A program made the position numbers and the translations under genes. Of a stretch of DNA of 64,000 bases, positions 2,872-48,100 are shown piece by piece. Origin of the DNA: a virus. The notes under the pieces are model-generated. The model was not told the DNA's origin, did no database searches, and saw only the letters and a list, made by a program, of their open reading frames with translations. Within the stretch, counting starts at the first letter, position 1, and the number at the start of each line of letters is the position of its first letter. The DNA is taken from positions 46,787 through 110,786 of IMG/VR virus record IMGVR_UViG_3300047284_000228. The stretch is one strand, 5' to 3'.

Positions 2872-3240
2872 TTAATCCTCTGATGCTCCAGAATCGTAAG
2901 TGTATCCGTTGTTTATTCTAGCTACTAATTGTCCTTCGTTATCTATATAGTAAAATATAGCTCTGTCGTCCCAACGATATTGTTGATATTTTAAGTTTTC
3001 GAATACAGTATTATGATTTACATCAATTCCTTCATAGAAATCAACTCCAGTTTCGAGATCATTATAATTACCCGCTTCATCCCCTGGACGATTTAGTTCA
3101 ATAGCATCGTTGCTTTTTAATTGATCATTTCTTTGTAAAAATAAACTTCCGTTTTCATTTTTTCTTAGACCATAGAAAAATCTAGGAGTATCTCCTAATC
3201 TTGTGTACGGATCATTGCCTAGTACATAATTATTATTCAT
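2872..3240 (-). CDS. Hypothetical phage structural-module protein
   Basis: 122-aa ORF with GGAG SD, tightly packed in the operon. Confidence 0.7.
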   Translation of the reverse strand: MNNNYVLGNDPYTRLGDTPRFFYGLRKNENGSLFLQRNDQLKSNDAIELNRPGDEAGNYNDLETGVDFYEGIDVNHNTVFENLKYQQYRWDDRAIFYYIDNEGQLVARINNGYTYDSGASED

Positions 3241-3586: not shown

Positions 3587-4639
3587 TTATCCTAGTGTTA
3601 ATGCAAATCGTATTGCGATGTCTGTGGCGGCGGTTTCTGATACCGCACCAATCGTACCGGCCGGACTAGCCCAAGCAGTGCCGTCCCAAATTTCTAAGGC
3701 TTTTGAATCTGTATTGTATCTGGTCATACCTTCTACTGCATAAGCAGTAGGTCTGTCCCCTGCTGTACCTTTTGGAGGAACAAAAGCGTTAGTACCGGAG
3801 ATAACAAAGTAGCCTGTACCAGATTGGTCAAGCTGTGTAATAGATCCGCTGACTGTGTTTGTGATCAGATTGTTTCTAATCGCAAAATTTCCTAATCTCA
3901 CAGATCCTGCACCATTGCCTTCTAAAATTAGATCCTGTCCAGTAGTAGTGTTAATGCGGTTATCTATGAGTTGTAGATTACCGATGTTAAATTCTGTAAG
4001 ACTTAGGTTAGTAGCGAACAGATTAGTAGAATAAATATTTCTCCATCTGTTACTAGGGCTACCTATATCGTAGGTATTGTCTGTTTCAGGAATAAGGTTA
4101 CTGTTTAGGCTAGCATTGATAGTAACGGTGTCGGCGATACTATCGCCTATGATCAAATTTCCGCCTATGGTAATATTACCCGTGGCATTGATATTGCCTG
4201 TTACACTTAGATTTCCTGTAATATCAGTAGGTGCTTGTATATCCACAATACCTGTACCATTAGGTCTAAGTTCTAGATTAGAATTAGAAACTATAGTAGC
4301 GATCGTGTTTCCTGAAATTTCTATATCGTTTACGATCAGTCTAGAATGATAGATCGTAGCCTCGCCGCCGGAAGCAGTAAATGTTATTGAGGGAAGATCG
4401 CTGGAAATTGTATTGCCGGTTATAGTAAGATTACCTATGTCAAATTGATTGGTAACTTCAAGGTCTGTGACTCTTGTGGATCCAGCAACATCTAATGTGT
4501 ATTGAGGAGAAGAAGTTTTCACTCCAATGCGCGAATTCGTAACGTCCAGATAGAGAAGGTCGGTCTCAAAGGCTAGGTCCACACCATCTCTGATGAGATT
4601 GGCCTTTAAGAGCGGACCGGAAATTCGACCAATAGCCAT
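3587..4639 (-). CDS. Fibre-like virion structural protein (paralog of 4789..5898)
   Basis: IGRISGPxLxxNLxRxGVDLxF N-terminus; Gly/Asn/Thr beta repeats; YDIGSPSxRW motif; PxGT..RP..G.TRYN..E.WDG.W motif; AGGAG SD. Confidence 0.7.
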   Translation of the reverse strand: MAIGRISGPLLKANLIRDGVDLAFETDLLYLDVTNSRIGVKTSSPQYTLDVAGSTRVTDLEVTNQFDIGNLTITGNTISSDLPSITFTASGGEATIYHSRLIVNDIEISGNTIATIVSNSNLELRPNGTGIVDIQAPTDITGNLSVTGNINATGNITIGGNLIIGDSIADTVTINASLNSNLIPETDNTYDIGSPSNRWRNIYSTNLFATNLSLTEFNIGNLQLIDNRINTTTGQDLILEGNGAGSVRLGNFAIRNNLITNTVSGSITQLDQSGTGYFVISGTNAFVPPKGTAGDRPTAYAVEGMTRYNTDSKALEIWDGTAWASPAGTIGAVSETAATDIAIRFALTLG

Positions 4640-4654
4640 GCGCTCTCCTAAATA

Positions 4655-4764
4655 CCCCGTGTTTCACGGTTAACCAATTTTGGATTTCTCCGCAGCCGCT
4701 TCGACGGCTCTTTGCTGGTTTACCACAGTTTAATCACGCAGAAATTGGTCATTTGCTGCGATTA
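4655..4764 (-). ncRNA. Putative structured cis-regulatory 5' leader RNA with pseudoknot
   Basis: Five hairpins including a GAAA tetraloop, plus a 9-bp loop-to-3' pairing GACCAAUUU/AAAUUGGUU. Lies between a TAAATA motif and the SD. Confidence 0.55.
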
Positions 4765-4768
4765 GTAG

Positions 4769-4774
4769 TATTTA
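4769..4774 (-). promoter_or_regulatory. Late promoter motif TAAATA
   Basis: Core of the T4 late promoter TATAAATA, in intergenic position. Confidence 0.6.
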
Positions 4775-4788
4775 GTCAGATTGGGGAA

Positions 4789-5898
4789 TTAACCAAAGAT
4801 GAGGGTGTAAACGTGGCCAAGTTCTTCCATAACCGCAGGAGTTACCACAGTACCACCGCCAGTAGCCACTTGCCAGATTGTACCGTCAAAACATTCTAGA
4901 TAACCTAGTTCGTTGTTCCAACGTGTTTCACCTACTTCAACGCCCAGTCTTTGAGAATTATTTCCCACAGGAATACGCATGGCGCCGGTATCGTTGATCA
5001 CTAGATAGCCCGTACCGGTATGCGAGATAGTCACGGGAGAATTTAGTAGATTCGTTATAGTGCCTTGATTGATAGAAATATTTTCTATAATGACTGTACC
5101 AGTATCTGGTAGCAGATACAGATCATCATTGCTCTGCAGGGCTTCTATCCTGTTTGCGCTATAGTTTGCTTGATCGCCTACGATTAAATTAGTGATAGTG
5201 GGATTTTGAGATCCGTTCAAGTCAACGATATAAGTATCATTCCATCTGTGGCTAGGAGATCCGATGTCATACTGATCGTCCGATCCAGGAACTATACTTT
5301 GTGTAAAATCTGGAGCAATGGTCACAGTATCTATAGGACTATCTCCGATTATAAGCTGCCCATTTAACTGCACAGTTTCTGTAGACTGTATATTTCCAGT
5401 AACTGCTAGGTTGCCTAGGATAGCTGTATCTCTTTGAAACACAACTCGTCCAGTGCCGCTGGCATTAAGCACTATATCTTCATTAAGCACAGCACCAGAA
5501 ATCCTATTGCCGTCTATGTTGATAGAAGGAGTTTCTGCACGACCAAGTTCAACATAAGCATCTACTCCTACGGGCACGATGTTAATAGGACCTACGGTTG
5601 AAGTTATAGATCCATTTGAATTAAATCTTATGTTGTCGAATGTAGCCAAAGTTCCCGAAGCTAACAAGTCTCCGGTAATTTTTCCATCACCTGTGATATC
5701 TAGAGTAAAATTTGGGGGATTAGCGTTAATTCCGATGCGTCTATTAGTTACATCGAGATATAATAGATCGTCGTCGAGCGCAGCATTTCTAAATGTAAGA
5801 TCTACCCCGTTCCTCAGAAGATTCTGAGTCAGCATAGGTCCACTGATTCTACCTATAGAATATCCTGGCGGAGTCGATGGTCCTGGCGCTGCTGGCAT
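4789..5898 (-). CDS. Fibre-like virion structural protein (paralog of 3587..4639)
   Basis: Same N-terminal IGRISGP..LLYLDVTN.RIG block, YDIGSPSHRW motif and C-terminal ETRWN..LECFDG.W; AGGAG SD. Confidence 0.7.
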   Translation of the reverse strand: MPAAPGPSTPPGYSIGRISGPMLTQNLLRNGVDLTFRNAALDDDLLYLDVTNRRIGINANPPNFTLDITGDGKITGDLLASGTLATFDNIRFNSNGSITSTVGPINIVPVGVDAYVELGRAETPSINIDGNRISGAVLNEDIVLNASGTGRVVFQRDTAILGNLAVTGNIQSTETVQLNGQLIIGDSPIDTVTIAPDFTQSIVPGSDDQYDIGSPSHRWNDTYIVDLNGSQNPTITNLIVGDQANYSANRIEALQSNDDLYLLPDTGTVIIENISINQGTITNLLNSPVTISHTGTGYLVINDTGAMRIPVGNNSQRLGVEVGETRWNNELGYLECFDGTIWQVATGGGTVVTPAVMEELGHVYTLIFG

Positions 5899-8660: not shown

Positions 8661-8688
8661 AAACAAAAAGGCTCCGAAGAGCCTTTTT
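8661..8688 (-). terminator. Rho-independent terminator after the major capsid gene
   Basis: AAAAAGGCTC-TTCG-GAGCCTTTTTGTTT: cUUCGg hairpin plus U tract. Confidence 0.9.
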
Positions 8689-8716
8689 GAAACACTTGAA
8701 AAGTGTGTACCTTTGA

Positions 8717-19707: not shown

Positions 19708-20687
19708 CTTCTTCTGAACAGACTAAAGTTTTCAGTTAGACTAGCTTTGGTTCTAACAATGCTGTCAGAAGTTGGTCCCATAATTCTTGCGCGATCTGCA
19801 TCGATTTCGGCCTGACTAGGACCTGCTGGTTTCTTGGCAGGTTTTCTTTTATTTGGCTTGGGCTCTGCTGCCGCAGGTGCTGTCGTAGGTTTAGCAGCTG
19901 GTGCTGCATTTGGATTACCTGGTTTAGCAGTATTAGTTTTACTTACCGGAGCATTTGCCATCGTGTTAGGTTGTTCTGCTCCCCCTTTGGCTAACTGTCC
20001 GACCATTTGTCCCATTGCACTTGCACCAGCATCGGCCGCTGGTGCTGCTGCAGGTTTGGCTGCTGGCTTCTTAGCAGCGGGTCTTTCCATGGCTGCTTTA
20101 ACTTTTGGATCAGCCTGGAGCATGGTTACGATTTCTTTTTTCTGTTCAGGTGCCAATGACGACACTGCTTTTTGTGCCTGAGCATATGCTGTATCAGATT
20201 TAGGTTCGTCTAAAGTTGGTTCTACTCTGCCGGCAGCAGCATCAGCGCCGCCTGCGGCTGCTGTGGTTAGTTTACCAAATGTGCTCTTAGGTGCAGCTTT
20301 GGTAGCTTTTGGTGCAGATGCTGTTCCAGTATCGGCTGCAGGTGCTGCACTACCTCCCCCAGCAGCTGGTGCTGCTCCACTACTGCTACTACCACCGGTT
20401 GCGGCTGTCTTAGTAGTACCTCCGCTTTGAGCTGTATTGCCCGTATCTGCGGCTGTGTCTGCTTCATCATCGTCACCGGCTGCGGCCACGGTAGATTTGC
20501 CTCCACGATAGCCTTTCATAAAAGCTGATCCTAGTCCGGCAACACCGCCGGCCACAGATCCCACCGCCTTGGCAGCAGTTCCTGCAACCTTGCCTACACC
20601 TTGACCAATCTTGTTAAGGATAGGGCCTTCCTGTAACACTGACAGTTCTTGTTGTTGGCTTTCGTTTAATAGTTCATTGATTTTCAT
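19704..20687 (-). CDS. Ala/Pro/Gly-rich probable internal head protein
   Basis: MKINELLNE N-terminus; LNE/LQE/LTE gp21-type sites; low-complexity body. Confidence 0.55.
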   Translation of the reverse strand: MKINELLNESQQQELSVLQEGPILNKIGQGVGKVAGTAAKAVGSVAGGVAGLGSAFMKGYRGGKSTVAAAGDDDEADTAADTGNTAQSGGTTKTAATGGSSSSGAAPAAGGGSAAPAADTGTASAPKATKAAPKSTFGKLTTAAAGGADAAAGRVEPTLDEPKSDTAYAQAQKAVSSLAPEQKKEIVTMLQADPKVKAAMERPAAKKPAAKPAAAPAADAGASAMGQMVGQLAKGGAEQPNTMANAPVSKTNTAKPGNPNAAPAAKPTTAPAAAEPKPNKRKPAKKPAGPSQAEIDADRARIMGPTSDSIVRTKASLTENFSLFRRS

Positions 20688-22207
20688 TTGATGTCCTCTG
20701 CGGCCTGCGGTAACAGTCTTTCTCTGTCTGCGGCGATTTCTGCTGATTGTTTCATACCTTTGGCGCCACCTAATAGGTATTTTAACAATCTTGCCTTGCG
20801 GTCCACAGGTAATTTTGCTACCAGTTGTTTTACTGTTTCTAGATCTGCTAGAGCCTTGCCTGAGCCGGGTGCTGGTAGTTTCATTGAAGCATAGACACTC
20901 TTGATCATTTCAGTGTCAATGTTTTGTTTGGCAAGAAAATCTGCTAGCTGATCCGAATCTGTAGGACTGCCTGCTTTCTGCCAAGCAGAATTTAGTTTGT
21001 CTGCTGTGATTTTTGTGGTTAGATTTCCTGCTTTCTTAGAAACCCAGTTAGCTGCACCTTTAACCATGTCCATGGGACCTTCGTTGAGCTGTTCTGCAGC
21101 AATCCTATTGAATACCAAATATACTTGCCCTTCACTGAGAGGTCTAGATTGTAGGTAAACACTCTCTTTCTTTTCTTTGCCGCCAGCGACACCAGCAGCA
21201 GCCACAGCACCCTGAGACACTGCCTGTAGTCCTTCTTTGGCTGCTTTGATAAAATTAAGCAGCGAATCATTTTTAATAAGTTCTTGTCTACTGATTTCTA
21301 GGGCACTTGCGATTTCTTGTTTATATTCTGCGCTGTTGATGATCTTGGCTACATTTTCTAACTGCTCAAAACCTTCGTTGGCAGCGTCACCGCCCATCCT
21401 TAATAGGGTTTCTGCTGATCTCACAGCACTGGCCATTTCAGGATCTACGATAATATCGATGCCCTGTATTTCTCGTGTCCACTCCATGCCTGGAGCAGTG
21501 ATTGTTTTAGTAGCACCAAACGATACCTGTTCAAATCCTGCATTCTCAGGACCAAATGGAAGAGATTTAATCCTAATACCTTCAGCGAATTCGCCCAGCA
21601 TTTCAAATGCCTTGCCGGATAGATAACCAAATACTGCGGTCTTAACACCTTTACCAATGGCTGTGGAAAGTTTTTCGCCCTTGAGCAGTTCTACAGAACC
21701 TCTCAGTACTTGACCAGCGATAGCGCCACCGACAGGTCCACCTGCCAACGAAGCGATGGCTGTTAATACACCGACAATGGCCGCAGTTTTTCCGGGATTG
21801 GCCTTGGCCCATTCTCCCATACCTGCGACTTTCTGTGATAGATCAGGAAACTTCTTGCTGATAGTGGCCTTGAGATCTTCAAACTTTTGATCAAAAGCCT
21901 TAACTGGTGTGGTGTCCTGTAACCACTTACCGATGTTATTGATGATCGCATCTGCTTTCTTGGCAACATCAACTCCTTTGCCTAATAGAGTCCTGTTTCC
22001 TCCAGCATCAGTGGCTGCTTTTTCCACACCACCAAATATGCCCTGTATCTGTTGAGGTGTTAGACTAGCTTCGATTAAAGGCTGTAGTTCTTTAACAATC
22101 CCCTCGACAATCTTACGTTGTTGTTGATCAAGACCTTGACAAGACTCCACTAGTACTCTACGAGACTCCGTCAGATGATTTTCAACAAGGATATTATTAA
22201 TTTTCAT
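20684..22207 (-). CDS. Probable internal head/ejected protein with glycine-zipper hydrophobic segment
   Basis: MKINNILVE N-terminus; multiple L-x-E sites; AAIVGVLTAIASLAGGPVGGAIAG segment; TAAATA upstream. Confidence 0.55.
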   Translation of the reverse strand: MKINNILVENHLTESRRVLVESCQGLDQQQRKIVEGIVKELQPLIEASLTPQQIQGIFGGVEKAATDAGGNRTLLGKGVDVAKKADAIINNIGKWLQDTTPVKAFDQKFEDLKATISKKFPDLSQKVAGMGEWAKANPGKTAAIVGVLTAIASLAGGPVGGAIAGQVLRGSVELLKGEKLSTAIGKGVKTAVFGYLSGKAFEMLGEFAEGIRIKSLPFGPENAGFEQVSFGATKTITAPGMEWTREIQGIDIIVDPEMASAVRSAETLLRMGGDAANEGFEQLENVAKIINSAEYKQEIASALEISRQELIKNDSLLNFIKAAKEGLQAVSQGAVAAAGVAGGKEKKESVYLQSRPLSEGQVYLVFNRIAAEQLNEGPMDMVKGAANWVSKKAGNLTTKITADKLNSAWQKAGSPTDSDQLADFLAKQNIDTEMIKSVYASMKLPAPGSGKALADLETVKQLVAKLPVDRKARLLKYLLGGAKGMKQSAEIAADRERLLPQAAEDIK

Positions 22208-22239: not shown

Positions 22240-22688
22240 AAACGAGCTTGCGCTCGTTTTGCGTTTTCGCTTACGCTCAACGCAATTTTTTCTTTCTTAG
22301 GATTTTTTCCGCGAAGCGGAAAGTTTAGCATTATCCAGATTTTAATGGTCACACTTAGCCCAGCTAAGGGCCAAGAGTACATTATCCGAGTTCGGCAAGT
22401 CACACAGCGTTATGGCATTACAGAGGCGGTTGTCCGGTACCTCGAGCCACGTCTTTACACAACGGCGGCCTACAACAATACGCTATCACTGCTGTAGACG
22501 TGCAGGTTTTCCCTGCTCTTTTTGCCTTTTTATCCTATTCAAACAACCAAATCGCAGGGCTTACAAGCGATCTTCATCCCGAAGGGTAGTGGTTGAGCAC
22601 CTTAGCGGCAAGGTTTTCCGTCCCTGTGACCACGATTGACCAGGTATAGAGCGCACGAATTTGGGCCTGCGCTAGCCAAAAACCGCTG
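22240..22688 (-). ncRNA. Putative large structured non-coding RNA (or RNA-primed origin) downstream of the GIY-YIG gene
   Basis: Largest intergenic gap in the window; GC-richer than the flanks; more than 10 helices by eye, with G.U pairs, GNRA and UUCG loops that favour the - strand. Confidence 0.6.
22329..22405. repeat. Bipartite direct repeat CATTATCC-N11-GTCACAC x2 (51-bp period)
   Basis: Copies at 22329-22354 and 22380-22405. Confidence 0.85.
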
Positions 22689-36159: not shown

Positions 36160-39100
36160 ATGGCACAAGAATTTTTTCCAGAAAGCGGATTACCTATTAG
36201 AAGAACAGTAGAACTTCTACCTAGTATCTTTCAAACCGAAAGCAATAGTAAATTTCTATCGGCAGTATTGGATCCTTTGGTCCAGCCAGGAACATTACAG
36301 AAAACTGTGGGATATATCGGCAGAAGGTATGGCAAGACCTATGTACCTACCGACATATATCTAGATACTGACAATACTCTGCGCAGTCGATATCAGTTAG
36401 AACCTGGAGTAACTGTTAAAGAAAATAACAGAGTAACTTCCTTCTACGATTATCTAGATTTTAAAAATCAAATTAAATTTTTCGGAAATTTAGAAGAATA
36501 CGATGCTATAGTTACTAGCCAAGATCATTATACTTGGACTCCGCCGATTGACTGGGATAAGTTTGTTAACTATAGAGAATATTATTGGGTTCCTGCAGGC
36601 CCTCCTCCAGTGACCATTGCAGGACAAGCCCAGAGAATTGTCAGTACCTATAGAGTAGCTCTTGGTACAGGCAGTGTGTTTATTTTCACGCCGGACGGTA
36701 TGTCTAATAACCCAACTATTACTTTGTATAGAGGACAGACATACAAATTCCAAGTTAGTGTTCCCGGACACGGCTTTACTATCAAGACCAATGTTGACAT
36801 AGGAAGATTAACATTTGATCCTAATAGAAATTATACTCCAGGCGAGCTAGTGGTATTCGATGAAAAGTTATGGAAAGCTAAAACAAACATTTCTTCTACT
36901 GACGGAAGCACCATAGACGAAAATAGTCAGGATTGGGAATATGTCGAGGATGTTGGTATCGCCAGTCAGTTTGATTATAATACAGGAGTTACAAATAACG
37001 GTGCCGAACGAGGAACAGTTACTTTTGAAGTTCCTATGAATGCTCCCGATGTACTGTTTTATCAAAGTACCACAGATATAAACAGGGTTGGTAGATTTAT
37101 CATAGCCGATGTCGACACCAATACAAAAATAGATGTCGAAAAAGAAATTCTAGGTAAAGTAACCTATACCAGTAGTAATGATGTTACATTAACTAACGGC
37201 ATGATAATCTATTTTTCAGGAAAGGTCAGCCCTGAAAAATATTCAAATTTAGATGATAAGTGGTTAGTTGAAGGTGTAGGAAAAAAAATCACTCTTACGA
37301 AATTCACTGATTTAATCGTATCTGCTAGCCTAAGCGGCAACAACATAGACGAAATATTATTTGATAACGGTGGATTTGACACACAACCGTTTGATGATGC
37401 AACAGCATATCCTGCTAAAAAAGATTACCTTACCATTAATAGATCTAGTGTAGATTCAAATCCTTGGTCGCGATATAATAGGTGGTTTCATAGAAGTGTA
37501 TTAGATTATTCTCATACATTTAACGGTTCGAGTTTTGAAGCCACTGAAGATTCTCGTGCTAAAAGACCAATTGTAGAATTCAAAGCTAATCTACAGCTTT
37601 TTAATCATGGTGCCCTAGCTAAACAGACAGTAGACTACATCGATGATTTTACCAGTGACGTGTTTTCTACAGTAGAAGGTAGCAGCGGTTATCTTGTAGA
37701 TGGCGAAGCTTTGTTTGAAGGAGCAAGAGTATTGGTCACTGCCGATACTGATAGCCTGGCCAATAATCAAATATATGTAGTACATTTTATTACACACAAT
37801 GGTTCAAAACAGATCAATCTAAAGAAAGCCGCAGACGGCGATTCAATAATCAACGAATGTGTACTGATTAGACGAGGAGTTAAAAATTCTGGCCTAATGT
37901 ATCATTACAATGGTACTACCTGGATAAAGAGTCAAGAAAAAACAAGTTCTAATCAAGAACCGCTTTTTGACTTATTCGACGACAATGGAGTTTCTTTCTC
38001 TGATATTGACACGTATCCGGTATCGACTTTTGCTGGAACTAGAATTTTAGGTTATCAACAAGGCTCCGGGGTAGTAGATACGGAATTGGGATTTTCTCTA
38101 TCTTATCTTAACATTGAAAATGTCGGAGATATAAAGTTCAGTTACGATTTAGATTATCAAGATTTTAATTATAAAGTTTTAGATACACGATATACTAAAA
38201 AATACAAGACAGGATTTTATAAATTTAATCCTGATAATCAATACGGAAACGGTTGGATTTTATTAGACAACGAATATTCTCAACCTATAATAGATACTAC
38301 AGTTGTAGACGAGATTACTGATACGATTGTTTCAACCGCAGTAGATTGGAGTAATGTACAAGAATCTCAAATTAGAAAAATTGTATTTTATAAAAATGGA
38401 ATCAGATCTAGAGTTTCTTGGCAGCGACAAGACAACAGGTTTATTTTCGAAGAAAAATTTCAAGTCAACGATACTGTAACAATCAAGATTTTTGCCGATC
38501 TAGATCCGGCCACTGGGTATTATGAGTTGCCATTGGGTCTTGAAAAAAATCCCCTCAACGACGAAATTGAGTCTTTTACTCTGGGCCAAGCTTCGGATCA
38601 TGTGTTAACAGGTCTAGATCTAACAGATAATTTCGAAGGGTTATTCCCTGGAAAAAACAATCTAAGAGACTTAGATGATTTTCAAAATAGATGTAATAGA
38701 TTCTTAAAACATAGTAATGTTTCTCCTTTGTCTGTTCTCAGTCTATGCGACAAAGAAGTTAATATTATCAAATCTATACAATACGCTAAAAAAGCCTATA
38801 CAGATTTTAAAAATACATTTATCGACCTAGCCTATAATCTGTATTCTGATCAGGAACCGAGAGATTTTGTTGATCAGATATTAGAAGAAATCAGTAAATC
38901 TCAAAACTCATCAAGACCATTTTCTGAATCTGATATGGTAGGCAGCGGAGCTTTTACATCTATTGATTATACTGTTGAAGATACAGGAATTAAAACATTT
39001 GCTTTGTCGAGTAAGTTTGATCTAGACACACTCAGTTCTAGAGCAGTATATGTTTATCGTAATGGAGTACAGTTATTACATGGTACACAGTACGAATTTA

Positions 39101-42100
39101 ATTCTACATTTGGTTTTATTAATTTAACGATAGAGTTGGCAGAAGGCGATGAGATACAGATCAGAGAATATGTTTCTTCTTATAGTAACTATATTCCTCC
39201 AACACCAACAAAATTAGGTCTCTATAAAAAGTATACTCCTATGAAGTATCTAGACGATACATTCATATCACCTAGAGAAGTCATACAAGGACACGACGGA
39301 AGCCTTACGGCGTCGTATGGAGATTTCCGAGATGATTTATTATTAGAATTAGAATATAGAATTTATAATAATATTAAACAAAAATATGATGAAAATATTT
39401 TTGATAATGATCTAGTATTAGGCGGATATTACGGAAATTCTCTCTACGATAAACCCTCAGTTGATAGTATAGTGTCGTTGGAATTTTTAAAATGGATCGC
39501 TGATACTAATATTGATTATATCAACAATCTTTATTTTGACAGCGAAGAATCATTTACCTATACCTACTCAAATATGACAGACCCTACCGGTACTAAAAAC
39601 CTGCCCGGTTACTGGAGAGGAGTATATAAATGGTTCTATGACACAGACAGACCTCATCTGTGTCCTTGGGAAATGTTAGGTTTTTCGGAAAAACCAACAT
39701 GGTGGGAAAGTGAATATGGTCCCGCACCTTATACAAAAAATAATCTGATACTTTGGGAAGATCTACGTGACGGTATAATTCGTCATGGAAACAGAGCAGG
39801 AACATACAAAAGATATCAGCGACCGTCTCTTATAGGACATATTCCCGTAGATGGTGACGGTAACTTAGTAAGCCCTCTTAATTCTGGACTAGCAACCAAT
39901 TTTACGTTGTTTAATAATCAAGGATCGTTCGACCTTGGTAGTGTTGCCCCAGTAGAAGCAGCCTGGAGATCCAGTTCAGAATGGCCATTTGCTTATATAA
40001 TAGCCTTATGTCTGTTAAAACCTTTTGAATATATCACAGACAATTATAATAAATCTGAAATAGGTCTTAACGTTTTAGGACAGACTATTAATAAAAACAC
40101 AGGTACGTTTTCAACAATTTCAGATATTATTTTTGAAAATTCATCGACTAAGATTGTTTCTGGTCTAGTAAACTATGTTGCAGATTATCTTAAGAGTAAA
40201 ACAACTCCTATAGATGTACTCAAAGATAAGATAACACATATTGATGTAAATCTCAGTACACGACTTTCTGGTTTTGTAGATCAAAGTCAACAGAAATATC
40301 TACTAGATAGCAAAAATCCAAACTCGTCTACGAGTAATATTTTTATTCCTCAGGAAAATTACGATATAATCTTTAATGTAAGTTCTCCTATATTTTCTTT
40401 AGTATACAGTGGTGTAATCTTAGAAAAGACTACACAAGGATGGAGACTACAGGGATATGATAATAAGAATCCGTTCTTCTACTATTACGAGGCATTGACT
40501 TCTCAGTCAGATCCCATTATATCGGTTGGAGGTGTCAGCGAAAGCTTCTTAAACTGGAGCGAAGAAAAATTTTACGGCAATGGTGTTGTTGTCAAATACA
40601 ATAATAATTATTATAGAAGTTTATCGAGTCATACCAGTACTACTGTATTTGATAAAACATTATGGAAGCAACTTCCTGATCTTCCTTTAAAAAATGCTGT
40701 CCAAGCATTTAGAAGAAACAAGTTCAACAGACTGTCTCTAAGGAAAATGCCTTATGGTCGTATTATGTCTAGGATCCAAGAAGTGGTTGATTTCTTATTA
40801 GGATATCAAGAATATCTAATAAGCATCGGATTCGTATTTGATGGGTATGATGCAGCAACACAGAGCACTGCTGACTGGTTCACATCTGTAAAAGAATTCA
40901 TGTTCTGGACCAAGCATAATTGGAGCAACGGTTCACTATTAACACTGAGCCCTAGCGCAGCAAAAATAACCGCCGAAGTTTCTATAGGTGTTGCGGACAA
41001 TTTCCTAGACAGTTTCTACGATTATCAAATATTGAGAGAAGACGGAACTCCGTTGCAGCCTAATTTTATTAATGTGGCCAGAGATCATAAGCAACTAGTA
41101 TTATCCACAGTTGATACAAATGCAGGAATTTATTTTATGAGAGCAAATTTTGTTCTCAAAGAGCATGTGACTGTATTTGATGATCGAACAGTTTTCAACG
41201 ATGTTATCTACGATAAGCCGACCGGATATCGCCAGATGAGAATTAAGAGTCGAGGTTTCCGAACAGTTGATTGGGACGGTGACTATACCAGTCCAGGATT
41301 TATCTTTGATAATGTAAAAATAGAAACCTGGAGACCGTTCACTGATTACAGATTAGGCGATATTGTCGCATACAAATCTTATTATTGGGTCAGCAAACAA
41401 AATCAATTAGGCTCTGAAAATATCGATGAGACAAAGTGGTCAAAATTAGATTCTGTTCCTACTAAAGGATTAGTCTCTAACTTTGATTATAGAATTAGTC
41501 AGTTCGGTGACTACTATGAAGTTGAAGCAGACGGAGTAGGTTCAAGTCAGAGAGATCTAGCTAGACACGCTATTGGCTATCAGTCCAGAGAATATTTACA
41601 AGCTCTAGCCGAAGACGAAGTTAGTCAATTTAGAATCTATCAAGGCTTTATCAGAGAAAAAGGCACAGCTAATTCCATAGTTAAAGTGTTCGATAAGTTG
41701 AGTCGTAGCAAAGACGATAGTATCGTACTGAACGAAGAATGGGCTTTCAAGATCGGAGAGTTTGGCGGCACCGATCAAACAAAAGAAGTTGAGTTTTTAA
41801 TCACTAAAGACTCATTAGTAATTAATCCTCAGCCGGTATTGGTTGTATCATCTAAGAGCAACGTGATCGTTGATCAAAATCTTAGAATTGATCCTTCGAT
41901 GTTTACCATTAGGTCAAAAACATTTACTACTGACATTAATCCTGTTGAGTTCTATAAAGGAACTTCCCGTTCTGCCGGCTATGTACATAAATCAGATGTT
42001 GACTATGTTGCAGCGAACAGAGACGGAATTCTTGACATCGATATTTCGCAGGTCAATGACGGAGCCCATATCTGGATTACATTTGACAGATATACATGGA

Positions 42101-45100
42101 CAGTGCTGAGATATAATGAAGAGTTATCTCTTAGAATAGTAGCAGTCGAAAAAGTTGACTCGGATGTAAGAGTTACAACAAATAGATCTCATAATTTATC
42201 TGTTAATGATATTGTTGGAATTACCAAAGTTCTTAATCTCACAGGTTTTTATAAGATAAAATCTCTAACGGCAAATACATTTACGGTGACTCCCACATCG
42301 ACAGATAATCCAGAAATCGAAGATAGCACTCATGCTGTTATAGGTCTGCTAACAGAAGCAAAGTTTGATAATTATTCTAACCTAGATCCTCAATTACTAG
42401 CTATGTTACAGAACGGAGCAAGATTGTGGATCAACGATAACGGTAGCGAACAGTGGGAAGTTATTGAAAAAACTAAACAATATAAATCTTATGAACTTGA
42501 AGACTATGGTATAACTGCGCCTTTAAATCTAGGATCGACTGTTTTATACGTAGAACAAAGAAAACATGTAATTACCAGCATCCCAACATCCAACTTTGTG
42601 ATGGTCTATTCGGACCGATCAGGGATCAACGGGTCGCTGCTATTAAATCAAATTATACCTCCGGCAGACGGTTTTGACACAGCAGTGAATGATGTATTTG
42701 GTCAAGTACTAGCAGTATCTCCCGACGGACTATGGTTAGCTGTCGGCACACCTATGGCCAGTGCCGTTCCTAGTAAATTTAGAGGCGAATTAACTTCTTC
42801 TAGTTATCTTGCCGGCGATGTAGTACTACATCGAGGAAAACTCTGGGAAGCCGTTAACAATATTGATTCGGGTGACGGCAGCACTATTAATTTTACCACA
42901 GAAGACTGGCAACCCGCTACTCTGGTAGAAGCATCGGCAGTAGGACTAGGCACTGGATATGTCAACCAAGGAATGGTTTCTCTTTATAAGTTCCAAAACG
43001 GACAGTGGGAAAATCAGATCAACATTGTAAGTCCTAGACCTCGTACCTACGAACTATTTGGTAGTGATATTAAGATAGCAGTATCCGGATCGAGATATAC
43101 TATGGCTGTTTCTGCCAAAGGTTCTTTGTGTGATACACAGATTGGGCCTAGTACCGGTAAAGGAAGGGTTTACCTATACGAGTTTGATGGTGTAGAGTGG
43201 AAACATTATGAAAATTCAAATTATCTTGGCATCTACGGACCTTATGATCCAATAGTATCTCCCTACACTGAATACCCCGCCGGCAGTATAGTATGGTCAG
43301 AAGGAAGTCTATGGCAGGCCATTGCAGATAATATCTATGACGGTAGCTCGATTACTTTAAATTCTACAGATTGGATTCGACTAGACCAGATAGCCACCGA
43401 TAACTCATTACCTACAAACGTGTCATTAGATGACGACGGATCTACTCTGGCTCTTGGTCTGCTAAACGAATCTCAATTAGCTGAACTAGTCAAAGACGGA
43501 GACCAGTTCGGACATAGTCTAGCTATGTCTAGGGACGGTTCAATATTAGTGGTTGGTATACCCAACGGCGACGCACAATATTTTGCAAACTACAAAGGAA
43601 TATGGAGTCCTTACCAGCAGTATGTATCCGGTGATGTTGTTAGATACCAGGATAGTTACCATATTTTATTAGACGACAATTCTCTTGACGGATCGTCAAA
43701 TACCAGTCTCAATGAAAGACCCGACGAAGGCGAACCATGGAGCAACGTTGGCGATAGTTCAGTAACCAGCACAGGAAAGATTTTTATCTATCAGAAGAAT
43801 AGTCTAGGTGTATACGATCTTATTCAGACTATAGCCGCATCTAATCTAAACGACATTAACGACAGCACAGTCGCAGATGCAGAAATAAGCTCCGGGGATC
43901 AATTTGGATATGCAGTTGATATAGATGCATCCGGTACAACTATCGTGGTCAGTAGCCCTCTTGCAGATATCATTAAACAAAATCAGGGTGCAGTTTATGT
44001 GTTTAAGAAAACAGGTGCTGCTGAAGTACAATTTAGATTAAGTCAAAAATTACAGAGTTTTGAAAGCTATACCAATGAATATTTTGGATCAAGTGTTTCG
44101 ATCAGTGCAGCCACTGAGCGTGTGGTAGTTGGTGCAAAAAATTCTGGTTATGATCTGATCACAACATTCGATTCAGGATCCACCACATTTGATAGTAGAA
44201 GAACATCTTATAGCACTAGGTTGGGATACCCTGGACAAGTTTATGTATTTGAAAGAAAGGATCAAGGATATCTACTAGCAGAAAAATTAGAAGCTGATTT
44301 TGTTTCCTTCGAATCTTTTGGTCATGCTGTTGATTGTACCAGTTCTGTGGTCGTAGTAGGATCACCGACCTATAAGGTGGAAGATATTGAAGTGGGTATG
44401 ATTAGACTATTTAAGAAAGACCCTTCAGTCAATAGTCTTAAGATCATACGTCAACAAACTGCTCAAGTTGATCTCGATGCTATTAAAAATATAGAGATCT
44501 ATGACGATAAGAAAAATGTAAAATTAGCTGACCTAGATATAGTCGATCATTTTAAGTTAAAAACATTATCGTTGGCAGATCAAGACATTAGGTATAAGAC
44601 TGTATATGATCCTGCGATCTATATGGTAGGCGACGATACAGTAACCATAGACGAATCACAGGCATGGTTTGAAGATCAGGTAGGCGAAGTATGGTGGGAT
44701 TTAGATTCTGTAAAATTCTTAAATTACGAACAAGATGATTTAAGCTATCGAGTCGGCAATTGGAATGCTCAAGTTGAAGGCTCTAGGGTCGACGTCTATG
44801 AATGGGTGGAAACACCATTGTTACCTTCGGAGTGGAGTATATTAGCCGACACTGTAGAAGGCCTAGCTGAAGGAATTTCAGGCCAGCCAAAAAATGCAGA
44901 TGACACGGTATACAATGTAAAGATTTTAACTAATCCTTCTACAGGAAATCCTACCAATACCCTATACTATTATTGGGTAAAAAACAAAACTACCCTGCCT
45001 ACCAATGCCGACAGACGCATGTCTGTAGCATCGATTAGTTCTTATATCTCCAATCCAATAGGCACAGGTATTCCTTTCGTAGCGATTTTAGACACAGACA

Positions 45101-48100
45101 AGTTTGCATTTTATAACTTTAAATCTGTATTAAACAGCGATACTGCGAAAATCAATATTGAATTTAATCTGGCGAAGACCAATATAAATCCTGTACACAA
45201 AGAATATCAGCTATTAACAGAAGGAGTAGCAGACTCATTACCTGCAGATAGTTTAGAAAGGAAATGGCTAGACAGTCTTGTTGGCTTTGATGACGCAGGA
45301 AATACTGTACCCGATTTTAATCTATCAGAAAATCAAAGATACGGTTTAAGTTTTAGACCTAGACAAACTATGTTTGTTAACAGAGCTAAAGCCCTAAGAA
45401 TCGCCATCGATAACATTAATTCTGTTTTAGAAACCAGACCTTTTACTGATTTGATTAATTTTGTTAATCTTAACAGTACTGATCCGTTACCCAGTGAAGA
45501 ATTAAATGAATACGATATAGCCGTTGATGAATATATTGATTTAGAACAGGTCGGAACGGCTAAGATTAAGTCAGCAGAATTTAGAGCTAATATAATCAAC
45601 GGCCGGATCGATACGATTGATATTGTTGATCCGGGTTTCGGATATAGAACAGTTCCTTTCATAGAAATCGAAGGAACCGGAACCGGAGCCAAAGCCGCTG
45701 TTACTTTAGATAGTCAGGGTCGAGTAGTTTCATGCACGGTATTGATCAAAGGTAAAAAATATACCTCTGCAATAGTTAAAATCAGACCTTTTACTGTCCT
45801 GGTAAGAAATGATTCAACCGATAAAAACTTCTGGAGCTTGTACGGTTGGGACCAGTTGAGAAAAATATTCTATAGAAGAAAGTCTCAAGGTTTTAACACT
45901 AGTTTATATTGGGAATATATAGATTGGTGGACAGAAAACTTTGATGAAAAATCAAAGATATTCAAAGAAATTAATTATTTCTATGAAGAACCATCTGTGA
46001 ATATTCTAACAGGATCTTTACTAAGAGTAAAGGAATACGGTTCTGGTGGCTGGGCAGTATTACAGAAAACTGAAAAAGGTCAAGGATCGATTTTAGAAAA
46101 TTATAATTTAGTAGGTAGACAGAACGGTACAATTCGAATTAAAGAAACTCTGTATGATGCGGTCACAGCCTCTTTAGGCTACGACAATATAGGCCCTTAT
46201 GATTCTGTGTTATATGATCTTCAGCCAATCAAAGAGTTGAGATCAATTCTTAAAGCAGTTAAAGAGGATATTTTCGTTGACGATCTCAGCGTTGAGTGGA
46301 ATAAATTATTTTTCAGTTCTGTGAAATATTCCTATGCCGAACAGCAATATATTGATTGGGCTTTCAAGACCAGTTTCTTAAATGCGATTCATAATGTAGG
46401 AGATCTAGATCAACGTCCAAATTATAAAAACGACAATCTTGATCAGTTTAGAAGTTATATAGAAGAAGTTAAACCTTATAGAACTACTGTAAGAGAATAT
46501 ACATCTAGATACACAGAAAAAAATAACTACGGATCGGCTCTAACAGACTTTGATCTTCCGGCTGCATGGTCAGTTCGTGACGGAAAAATACTACCAGTAT
46601 CATCGTCTTATAATAGGTTTGACGAATATCCCTGGAAGTCATGGTTAGAGAATAACGGATTTTCTATAATTGAAATCGCAGTATCGAAACCGGGTTCGGG
46701 ATATAAAACACCTCCTAAAGTATTGATCGAAGGCAATGGAACGGGTGCTTCGGCTACTGCTTTTATTTCTAGCGGAAAAGTATCTGGCATACGAGTAGAT
46801 AATCCCGGAATTGGTTATACAAAAACTCCTACCATCTTGCTGGTAGGCGGTAATGGAACCAGTCAGGATGTCGCTAAAGCTTCTGCAATTCTAGGCAACA
46901 CCAAGATAAGGAGTTTTGATCTAGGAATCAAATTTGATAGAATAGCTAAACAAGGTTTGTATAATACGTTTACTACTTCGCAGACATTCACCGCTACTGG
47001 ATATAGTGCAGTGTTTAATCTAAATTATGCTCCTAGTATAGATAAAACTAAGATTTCTATAATTAAGAACAATCAATTAGTCTTGCCAAATGAGTATGAA
47101 ATAAATCTTTACAAGACAGATGAAGGTGGTTTTACTCTGTTAAAAGGCAAGATAAGGTTCTTTATCGCACCAGCAGCAGGCGATGTAATTGTTGTTGACT
47201 ACGAAAAGAATGACGAAATATTAGACAGCATCAACAGAATAGAAAAATACTATTCACCTACTGCTGGAATGATAGGTAAAGAAATCAATCAGTTAATGAC
47301 AGGAATTGACTACGGCGGAGTACAGATTCAAGGTACAACTTTTGACGTAACCGGCGGCTGGGATGCTCTTCCATGGTTTACTGATAACTGGGATAGTGTT
47401 GAAAGTAATTCTGATTTTTACTATGTAGCAGATGGCAGTACTACTTTCGTTGTCTTACCATATGTGCCTGAAAACAATCAACCTATTTCTATATACTTAA
47501 AACGAGTATATGAAAATAGACCAACTAGGATAGACGATCCTTATTTCTTGGAATATGATGGGTCTACGCCTCAGCCAAACGGTAGAGTAACCGTGCCCGA
47601 TACTGCATTGATACCTACATTCATTGGAGACGGATCTACAAATATTGTAGAAATACATGATTACATTAGTACTTCTCCGGGCGATACACTGATATTTAGA
47701 AAATTGGAAAGTGACGGATCAGTTACAATTACCGATGTTAATTTGTTAGATACTAGGATCAGTGGAGGATCGTTATCTGCGATCGGCGGAGCATACGTGA
47801 CTGCGGCAGGCCTAACTCCAGAAGAAATTGTCATAGATGGAGATAAGTTTGTAACACCAGAAAACACACCTGCACCAGAAGAAAATCTTCCCGGGCAGGT
47901 CTTAGATAGCCTAAGTTTCAAAGTCTTTACCATCACCAGTCCCGGTGCATCTGCGCTTCAAAACAAAGTGCTTATAGGTGACGGACAAACATTAGTCTAT
48001 GATATAGGTTTGACTATTTTTGAAGCATCGTCTGTCATGGTCTATGTTGATAAAATCAAACAAGAATATGTTGGAGATAGTTCAGTAAGTTACTCGATAA

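Follow-up and report, generated by a model that had tools for sequence, protein, structure and literature searches.

What is the structured RNA that fills the gap between two fibre-like genes of an uncultured T4-like phage, and what does it do for the gene that follows it? The gap lies in a stretch of 64,000 nucleotides (nt) of the IMG/VR record IMGVR_UViG_3300047284_000228, which we call the window. It runs for 149 nt, from 4640 to 4788 on the minus strand, and the two genes on its sides are paralogs. A preliminary description of the window had proposed a compact, pseudoknotted RNA in the 5′ leader of a virion gene, inferred to be a fibre gene. Covariation bears out the RNA, but the pairing partner proposed in that description was the wrong one. 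We think it quite probable that this is a real structured leader that controls translation initiation of the fibre-like gene. In hundreds of aquatic T4-like phages, all uncultured, the element probably acts as a new switch or brake on the synthesis of the fibre protein.

All the evidence is computational, from comparative analysis and energy models; leaders were parsed by regular expressions and aligned with MAFFT and Infernal. The leader is kept in more than 250 phage loci of IMG/VR, which give 175 distinct versions (individual loci carry L numbers), always directly 5′ of a fibre-like gene whose product begins MAIGRISGPLL. Because the single-sequence minimum free energy of the window's leader is unremarkable (z −1.8), the case rests on the comparison with relatives, and the homologous leaders retain the helices via compensatory changes.

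A covarying pseudoknot core

The central part of the leader has three features:

4672–4728, minus strand: H-type pseudoknot core, supported by covariation
4682–4709, minus strand: two inserted hairpins in loop 3 of the pseudoknot, AGCCG-UCGAAG-CGGCU (4709–4694) and GGA-GAAA-UCC (4691–4682)
4657–4669, minus strand: hairpin P4, CCGUG-AAA-CACGG, supported by covariation

The core is made of two short helices. In S1 (UGU/GCA), U4727, G4726 and U4725 pair with G4715, C4714 and A4713. In S2 (AACCN/N′-N-GGUU), A4720, A4719, C4718, C4717 and A4716 pair with the strand formed by U4677, G4675, G4674, U4673 and U4672, in which U4676 is bulged. In 38 distinct cores, S2 is 100% paired and all five of its pairs have changed on both sides, while shifted registers of the same helix are only 34–47% paired. 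In a larger set of 100 distinct cores, the S2 junction pair (16:67) is C-G in 47, A-U in 35, G-C in 10, G·U in 4 and U-A in 2, with two more pairs in the marine clade. S1 is 99.7% paired in these 100 cores; its pair 5:19 is U-A in 93 and A-U in 7, and its pair 7:17 is U·G in 85, C-G in 11 (two clades) and U-A in 3 (a sister clade). A few positions of the core are invariant and about a dozen more almost so, and many of these are unpaired; G4724, G4710 and the A-A step before the 3′ strand of S2 (A4680 and A4679 in the window) show little or no variation. At the S1/S2 junction the bulged base can be U, A or C. Taken as a comparative result, the covariation indicates that the H-type pseudoknot core is real and conserved.

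This arrangement changes how the neighboring elements are to be read. UGG-UAAA-CCA, which had been described as a hairpin, is not one; it consists of the S1a and S2a strands of a pseudoknot different from the one proposed. The other two hairpins that had been described as enclosed in the fold are present in the window, but they are lineage-specific, variable, peripheral inserts, absent in most members. In other members, loop 3 has 0, 1 or 2 hairpins at the same fixed site, mostly with GNRA or UUCG loops, and the stretch after G22 up to the start of P4 is mostly 12–48 nt long.

P4 also covaries. Its pairs 77:89 and 78:88 exchange C-G for G-C, and in the marine clade the entire hairpin is replaced by GGGA-CAGGA-UCCC. 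The distance from the end of P4 to GGAG is 6–8 nt in 156 of 183 leaders (85%). A non-canonical pair that flanks P4 (76:90; A4670/G4656) takes the forms A·G, U·U, G·G and U-A. A separate observation concerns alignment columns 3 and 20 (4729 and 4712), where A3/A20 becomes C3/U20 in all 5 sequences that change. The non-Watson-Crick covariations at 3/20 and 76:90 suggest tertiary or non-canonical contacts.

Two likenesses in this region were considered and rejected. The likeness of the AAGGU..AACCGU-hairpin to helix 45 of 16S ribosomal RNA is lost in the marine clade, where P4 is replaced, and a CsrA-type GGA loop is not a general feature, as it is found solely in the marine P4.

The partner of the 5′ hairpin

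Upstream of the pseudoknot stands a hairpin whose loop reaches, as we argue here, into the coding sequence:

4731–4764, minus strand: P1, 5′-terminal hairpin, stem UAAUCGCAG/CUGCG-UG-GAUUA (3′ strand also CUGCGUGAUUA), apical loop GACCAA at 4750–4745
4626–4632, minus strand: UUGGUCG, codons 3–5 (AUU GGU CGA), target of the P1 loop, supported by complementarity and compensatory change

For the P1 stem, RNAalifold shows compensatory changes in 5 of 5 predicted pairs; the stem sequence varies and the pairing is kept. A hairpin is present at this position in 70 of 72 distinct upstream sequences, and its loop reads GACCA in 50 of the 72. It is the conservation of this loop that called for a search for its partner.

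The partner first proposed was AAAUUGGUU (4680–4672), which can form 9 base pairs (bp) with GACCAAUUU (4750–4742). In the alignment, 79.7% of the cells of this pairing are paired, compared with 77.6% in shuffles, and there is no compensatory change in its core. The GGUU that it uses changes to GCCC, GGCU, GGUA, GUCC or AGUU, yet the P1 loop stays GACCA, and the closest relative of the window (L001) breaks the pairing. GGUU covaries with AACC, and the P1 loop covaries with codons 3–5. Thus the covariation check on homologous leaders suggested in the preliminary description upholds P1, S1/S2 and P4, which keep their pairing, but not the 9-bp helix, which does not covary. Other partners within the leader were also rejected: the ACC of the P1 loop is paired with the GGU of loop 3 in 72.8% of cases versus 73.6% in shuffles, and its pairing with the GGU after P4, or with L1, is by eye inconsistent across clades.

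In the coding sequence, by contrast, the complementarity is matched by changes on both sides. The loop GACCAA is complementary to UUGGUC(G), 4750–4745 with 4632–4627, in a long-range pairing of 7 bp and about −8.3 kcal/mol. A GACC loop is paired with GGUC in 130 of 175 distinct leaders. The compensatory combination GUCC/GGAC is seen in three leaders, which belong to two unrelated lineages (marine L098/L120; freshwater L317 and L348); here the glycine codon changes from GGU to GGA together with the loop base. The loop variants GGCC, GAUC and GACU preserve wobble pairing. The 4-mer GGTC is found in 166 of 175 leader genes and in 4 of 30 leaderless paralogs, and a clade that has no GACC-like loop has changed codons 3–5, which read GGA AGA. 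The comparison points to codons 3–5 as the true partner of the P1 loop.

A predicted Shine-Dalgarno helix

A second pairing into the open reading frame (ORF) involves the Shine-Dalgarno (SD) sequence:

4641–4649, minus strand: SD AGGAG (4649–4645) with the conserved flank AGCG, 5′ strand of helix P5, supported by conservation and predicted pairing
4608–4614, minus strand: CGCUCUU, codons 9–11 (CCG CUC UUA), anti-SD, 3′ strand of helix P5, supported by synonymous-site conservation

The start codon is the ATG at 4639. GGAGAGC is conserved far past what an SD requires, and the flank GAGAGCG (4647–4641) is complementary to CGCUCUU (4614–4608), in a helix that would enclose the AUG in a 26-nt loop. 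The synonymous sites of codons 9–11 are frozen solely in leader-bearing genes. Codon entropy in this strand is 0.52 bits for the proline and 0.60 bits for the first leucine, compared with 1.7–2.5 bits at comparable sites, and CCGCTCTTA is found in 102 of 169 leader genes versus 0 of 31 paralogs. In an alignment of 149 sequences the four SD-proximal pairs are 87% paired, and the outer pair 155:194 goes from G-C (55) to U-A (20) together with a Pro-to-Gln change. RNAfold, when the pseudoknot strands are blocked, pairs the SD bases with 4608–4614 at a probability of about 0.5–0.95. The SD and the AUG are thus predicted to be sequestered in P5. Because the SD flank and codons 3–5 and 9–11 pair with parts of the leader, the element is very probably one of translational control, as had been proposed at the outset.

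One group of relatives (L016–L019, L024–L026 and their kin) has lost three things together: the GACC loop; GGUC, where the codons now read GGA AGA; and the CCGCUCUU anti-SD, replaced by CAA AUG CUU. These leaders retain P1, the pseudoknot, P4 and GGAGAGC, and form a natural “platform-less” variant.

A short ORF in the leader (AUGACC...UGGUAA, 10 amino acids, aa) was also considered. It was rejected, as its start codon is not conserved and the lengths of the inserts are not multiples of three.

The predicted promoter and start of the RNA

Just upstream of P1 lies a promoter element:

4769–4774, minus strand: TAAATA, −10 element of a T4-type late promoter, supported by sequence and conservation

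TAAATA is invariant in 52 of 52 and in 149 of 149 aligned leaders, and the promoter of the window agrees with the T4 late consensus TATAAATA at 6 of 8 positions (consensus from PMC3014915). From TAAATA to the ATG there are 130 nt here; for other sites in the window the distance is mostly 8–50 nt (up to 201 nt, with a doubtful start). The transcript is predicted to begin about 7 nt after TAAATA, at the base of P1, near 4762. The structured segment does begin just after this motif, as the preliminary description had it, and the motifs listed there are all found where it had placed them: TAAATA at 4774–4769, P1 at 4764–4731, the two inner hairpins, CCGUG-AAA-CACGG and AGGAG.

Two side observations concern promoters. 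TAAATAYT occurs 5 times in the 64-kilobase (kb) window, compared with 13.4 ± 3.7 expected from shuffles, a scarcity consistent with avoidance of spurious late promoters. At 4775–4788 on the minus strand, after the stop codon of the upstream paralog and before TAAATA, lies a pyrimidine-rich CCAAUCUG-like block, which is kept in many relatives at the matching positions (L001–L080).

One element, one gene

How strictly is the leader tied to this gene? We can ask from both directions. Protein searches of IMG/VR, with the window protein and two divergent homologues as queries, gave 229 loci. In all but one of these protein-found loci, a covariance model of the core (R1, 51 positions) detects one copy immediately 5′ of the gene; the remaining locus, L069, is truncated at its start. 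In the other direction, a DNA pattern of the core matched at least 119 IMG/VR contigs, and 114 of the 119 matches precede a gene that begins M[AS]xGRI[ST]GPLL; the remaining 5 could not be parsed. R1 scores 64.7 bits in the window (E-value 4 × 10^−17), where nothing else is above 9 bits. The whole 110-kb record has this strong match and one weak match (E-value 0.31), and each of five contigs of 162–278 kb has a single copy.

Paralogs with the same N-terminus, such as the upstream gene of the window, have a bare SD or a short late-promoter leader and no such element. Given this strict linkage in both search directions, and the leaderless paralogs, the element is specific to a single fibre gene, the first of an operon. 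The genes behind the leader range from 349 to more than 3989 aa, and the longest genes or operons downstream exceed 12 kb. Only the leader and the N-terminal domain are retained; the rest of the gene differs widely, for total lengths of 350 to about 4000 aa. Freshwater and marine clades have an identical core, and their fibre proteins share only 33–50% identity.

Outside these uncultured phages we find little. blastn and tblastn against 50,697 phage records gave no relevant match to the gene or the leader among cultured phages, and full-text literature searches returned no description of the motif. The public runs that hold the locus are freshwater metagenome DNA only, with no RNA run listed. 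A pattern scan of the GTDB cellular genomes was swamped by chance matches, and the 80 loci retrieved include 1 true member (L215). It lies on a contig of 335,231 bp (PBPT01000016.1, motif at 3126–3192) in a metagenome-assembled genome labelled Candidatus Neomarinimicrobiota, and the contig carries the same promoter, P1, pseudoknot, P4 and fibre operon. The contig almost certainly derives from a phage. Its 335 kb agree with the genome size of about 350 kb that CheckV estimates for these phages, and it is probably a near-complete phage genome that was mis-binned, or co-binned with its host.

The gene and its genome

The two genes that flank the leader are:

3587–4639, minus strand: controlled gene, fibre-like virion protein of 350 aa, begins MAIGRISGPLLK
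4789–5898, minus strand: upstream paralog, fibre-like, 369 aa

The controlled gene heads a tight operon and is followed by genes of 110, 122 and more than 956 aa. Its product has weak tail-spike and tail-fibre matches in PHROG (E-value 2 × 10^−6), no sequence match in PDB and none in NCBIfam. The AlphaFold2 monomer is poor (mean predicted local distance difference test score 65.3), and Foldseek on this poor model gives only weak matches to tailspikes and to T4 gp34 (E-values > 0.1). The small proteins encoded downstream match no RNA-binding family, and no terminator was found between the upstream paralog and the controlled gene.

The window comes from a T4-like myovirus, and its products include the gp23 capsid protein, the gp20 portal, gp46/47-like nucleases and tail-collar fibres; the source record is a fragment with an estimated completeness of 32%. 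psbA was not found in the five large contigs that carry the motif, so these are probably not from cyanophages.

Other observations in the window are worth recording. Directly 3′ of the gp23 major capsid gene, at 8664–8689 on the minus strand, there is a strong intrinsic-terminator-like hairpin (11 bp, UUCG loop, T-run), so that the genes downstream of it, the fibre cluster included, would need their own promoters. At 36160–49917 on the plus strand, a single ORF of 4585 aa lies among tail and baseplate genes, one of several giant structural genes in this phage group. And at 22541–22677 on the minus strand, in a 480-nt gap upstream of a 507-aa gene (20684–22207), there is a full-length, strong match to the Rfam Polynucleobacter-1 RNA (RF01718; 101 bits, E-value 1 × 10^−20); a motif resembling a small RNA is thus carried by a freshwater T4-like phage.

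How the leader may work

The pieces suggest the following mechanism. The T4-type late promoter would start the mRNA of the fibre operon at the foot of P1. The RNA would then form the compact H-type pseudoknot, with P4 at a fixed distance from the SD. The P1 loop GACCAA would kiss UUGGUC in codons 3–5, contacting the loop of P5, and the SD flank GAGAGCG would pair with CGCUCUU in codons 9–11. The SD and the AUG would be held in a closed, knotted fold, such that the 30S subunit could not load without opening it. The closed fold may thus limit 30S loading. The pseudoknot core would be the module that recognizes a trans-acting factor, which in turn would govern how frequently the lock opens, and the net effect would be the timing or the dosing of fibre synthesis. 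We infer a recognition role for the core because it is almost invariant and is kept where P1 or the anti-SD are lost. As for the factor, something universal (the ribosome, another host component, a metabolite or an ion) is more likely than a fast-evolving phage protein, because the core is the same across clades whose fibre proteins have diverged so far.

Several points weigh against this mechanism. The sequences counted as distinct are phylogenetically related and are not independent events, so the counts overstate the number of independent changes. The promoter, the transcript start and the fold are all predictions from sequence. P5 shows little true covariation, since any CUCU run can pair with GGAG, and its support is mainly synonymous-site conservation. 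L140–142 have no P1, and together with the L016 clade, which has neither the GACC loop nor the anti-SD, they imply that the lock is not universal and that the core has a role of its own. Finally, no alternative (“open”) conformer with conserved pairing was found among the leaders.

What, then, would act on the core? A protein-binding operator is a possible answer, which we hold tentatively. A phage protein (the fibre N-domain or a late regulator), a host protein or the 30S platform would bind the pseudoknot and P4, with a logic like that of T4 gene 32 or E. coli rpsO, and with S1 or S15-like entrapment as host options. There is a precedent in the T4 family, where gp32 binds a pseudoknot in its own 5′ leader and represses its own translation (PMC3014915). 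P4 lies 6–8 nt from the SD, within the 30S footprint, and the joint retention of the leader and the N-terminal domain, while all else in the gene varies, fits a protein partner. However, paralogs with the same N-terminal domain have no leader, the core is conserved above any phage protein of the locus, which argues against a co-evolving phage partner, and the small downstream proteins offer no RNA-binding candidate.

A metabolite or ion riboswitch, in which the pseudoknot is a small aptamer, of about the size of the preQ1-I, SAM-II or guanidine-III classes, whose ligand stabilizes or releases the kissing pairing and the SD:anti-SD helix in the manner of the regulatory kissing loop of cobalamin riboswitches, we regard as rather doubtful. 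The core has features in favor of an aptamer: it is a compact H-type pseudoknot with invariant or nearly invariant unpaired positions and non-canonical covariation, it tolerates peripheral GNRA/UUCG hairpins at one site, and it is joined to an SD sequestration that resembles an expression platform. Its identity in freshwater and marine clades suggests a universal ligand, and it matches no known class. Still, a virion fibre gene gives no hint of a metabolite, no conserved alternative helix incompatible with the present pairings was found, there is no evident binding pocket (the bulge at the S1/S2 junction varies), and the L016 clade retains the core without the platform. The more specific proposal of a riboswitch class found only in phages is unlikely; here a pseudoknot aptamer of about 35 nt would sense a universal host metabolite or ion, and would gate the synthesis of the receptor-binding fibre via the kissing loop on the first codons and the anti-SD inside the ORF.

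It may also be that no trans-acting factor is involved, and that the fold by itself throttles initiation and so sets the stoichiometry of the fibre. Additionally or alternatively, it could keep RNase E or RNase J from attacking the 5′ end of a very long mRNA, or favor read-through by the polymerase like the HK022 put and EAR RNAs. We give such a constitutive element a small chance, but as no conserved alternative helix was found, a constitutive throttle or stabilizer stays a serious rival. The 5′-terminal stem begins at the predicted transcript start, the genes and operons downstream are very long, and ligand-free SD-masking hairpins are common in T4 (genes e, soc, 49 and 25; PMC3014915). On the other hand, a plain throttle or stabilizer needs no pseudoknot with invariant unpaired bases across divergent phages, as simple hairpins suffice in T4, and the ideas of antitermination and of nuclease resistance have no specific support here.

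Improbable as a general explanation is a late-promoter bypass of the T4 gene e/I-TevI type, in which RNA reading through from the upstream paralog pairs UCUGACUAAAUAC with GUAUUUAGGAGA and is silent, while the RNA started at TAAATA is translated. It draws on one further feature:

4767–4780, minus strand: lineage-specific, promoter-spanning strand UCUGACUAAAUACU, complementary to GGUAUUUAGGAGA (about 4644–4656)

The UCUGACUAAAUACU/GGUAUUUAGGAGA pairing could mask the SD solely on read-through transcripts. The duplex has an energy of −11 to −13 kcal/mol, at z −3 to −5, in 6 listed relatives with the same promoter and pre-SD sequences as the window, the predicted accessibility of the SD falls from 0.29 to 0.09 in the read-through form of the window, and no terminator separates the two genes. 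But the duplex is missing in about 90% of members (68 distinct pairs tested, mean z −0.5), and it leaves the conserved pseudoknot, P4, the kissing pairing and the anti-SD unexplained, so it is at best a lineage-specific add-on.

Very improbable, lastly, are the preliminary fold, three hairpins enclosed by a 9-bp complementarity that is present in the window but fails in relatives as described above, and a self-cleaving ribozyme, since no ribozyme family matched even at E ≤ 10, though small pseudoknotted ribozymes such as pistol do occur in phages.

Comparison with known systems

We compared the locus with the 4227 models of Rfam 15, which include c-di-GMP-I, preQ1, SAM-II/V, pistol and other ribozymes. 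At gathering thresholds, the window has no match at the leader, and its sole match is Polynucleobacter-1 at 22541–22677. A permissive scan of 4500–4900 reports only ATPC, with 16 bits against a gathering threshold of 45 and an E-value of 1.5, which is chance level. The statement that the leader belongs to no recognized family therefore agrees with the scans. The likeness to c-di-GMP-I (GEMM-I) aptamers that had been pointed out does not survive, as there is no such match even at E ≤ 10. What is shared is only the short GGUAAACC..GCAAAG string, which belongs to S2a and S1b of the leader. The c-di-GMP-I aptamer has two arms, P1 and P2, with a GNRA tetraloop-receptor, whereas the leader is a hairpin, an H-type pseudoknot and a hairpin, with no P2 arm; and the GAAA hairpin of the window, unlike the c-di-GMP-I tetraloop, is a variable insert that most members lack.

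Cobalamin riboswitches have a regulatory kissing loop, and the preQ1-I, SAM-II and guanidine-III riboswitches are small pseudoknot aptamers. With these, the leader may share the principle of a compact pseudoknotted sensor with a loop-loop contact to the hairpin of the ribosome site. It has no sequence or model match to any of the four, and what its loop kisses is coding sequence directly 3′ of the AUG. Should a small molecule prove to bind the core, the leader would represent a new class of riboswitch, the first that gates a structural gene of the virion; if that class were found only in phages, a virus would be reading host physiology to tune the composition of its virion. Should the ribosome or a protein bind instead, the leader would reveal how fibre dosage is set in large phages.

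The T4 genes e, soc, 49 and I-TevI have SD-sequestering hairpins with a late-promoter bypass (PMC3014915). As in these, a late promoter of the TATAAATA type adjoins the structure, and the SD here is predicted to form part of a helix. The complement between promoter and SD of the gene e/I-TevI type is shared by the window's subclade alone (6 listed relatives, among 68 pairs). The SD-masking strand found across the family lies downstream, in codons 9–11, and late transcripts retain it, whereas in the gene e type the strand lies at or upstream of the promoter; promoter choice cannot, then, bypass the predicted lock. The T4 examples of SD masking also lack both a pseudoknot and a kissing loop.

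Of the known systems, the gene 32 leader of T4, T2 and RB69 comes closest. Both are in the T4 family, both have an H-type pseudoknot in the 5′ leader upstream of the ribosome site, and both serve, here by prediction, translational control. They differ in that the gene here is a fibre gene and not one for a single-stranded DNA-binding protein, that there is no sequence likeness, and that the promoter is a late one. The gene 32 leader has an unstructured, A+U-rich UUAA(A) tract before the ribosome site; here there are P4, a spacer of 6–8 nt and two pairings into the ORF. The leader is thus neither a gene 32 operator, nor a T4 SD-masking hairpin, nor a cobalamin riboswitch.

A review of 2010 noted that the gene 32 pseudoknot was possibly the sole viral pseudoknot used in translational autoregulation (PMC3014915), from which it follows that few structured leaders controlling phage late genes are well understood. 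The leader described here would be a second case, unrelated to the first and far more elaborate, present in hundreds of T4-like phages from fresh water and the sea that have not been cultured. The gene that it precedes is the one most likely to determine host recognition. It is a compact RNA of about 110–175 nt with clear pairings, and nature provides a compensatory pair, GACC/GGUC versus GUCC/GGAC. It also holds a lesson for annotation: the freezing of synonymous sites in the first dozen codons can reveal RNA elements that extend into ORFs.

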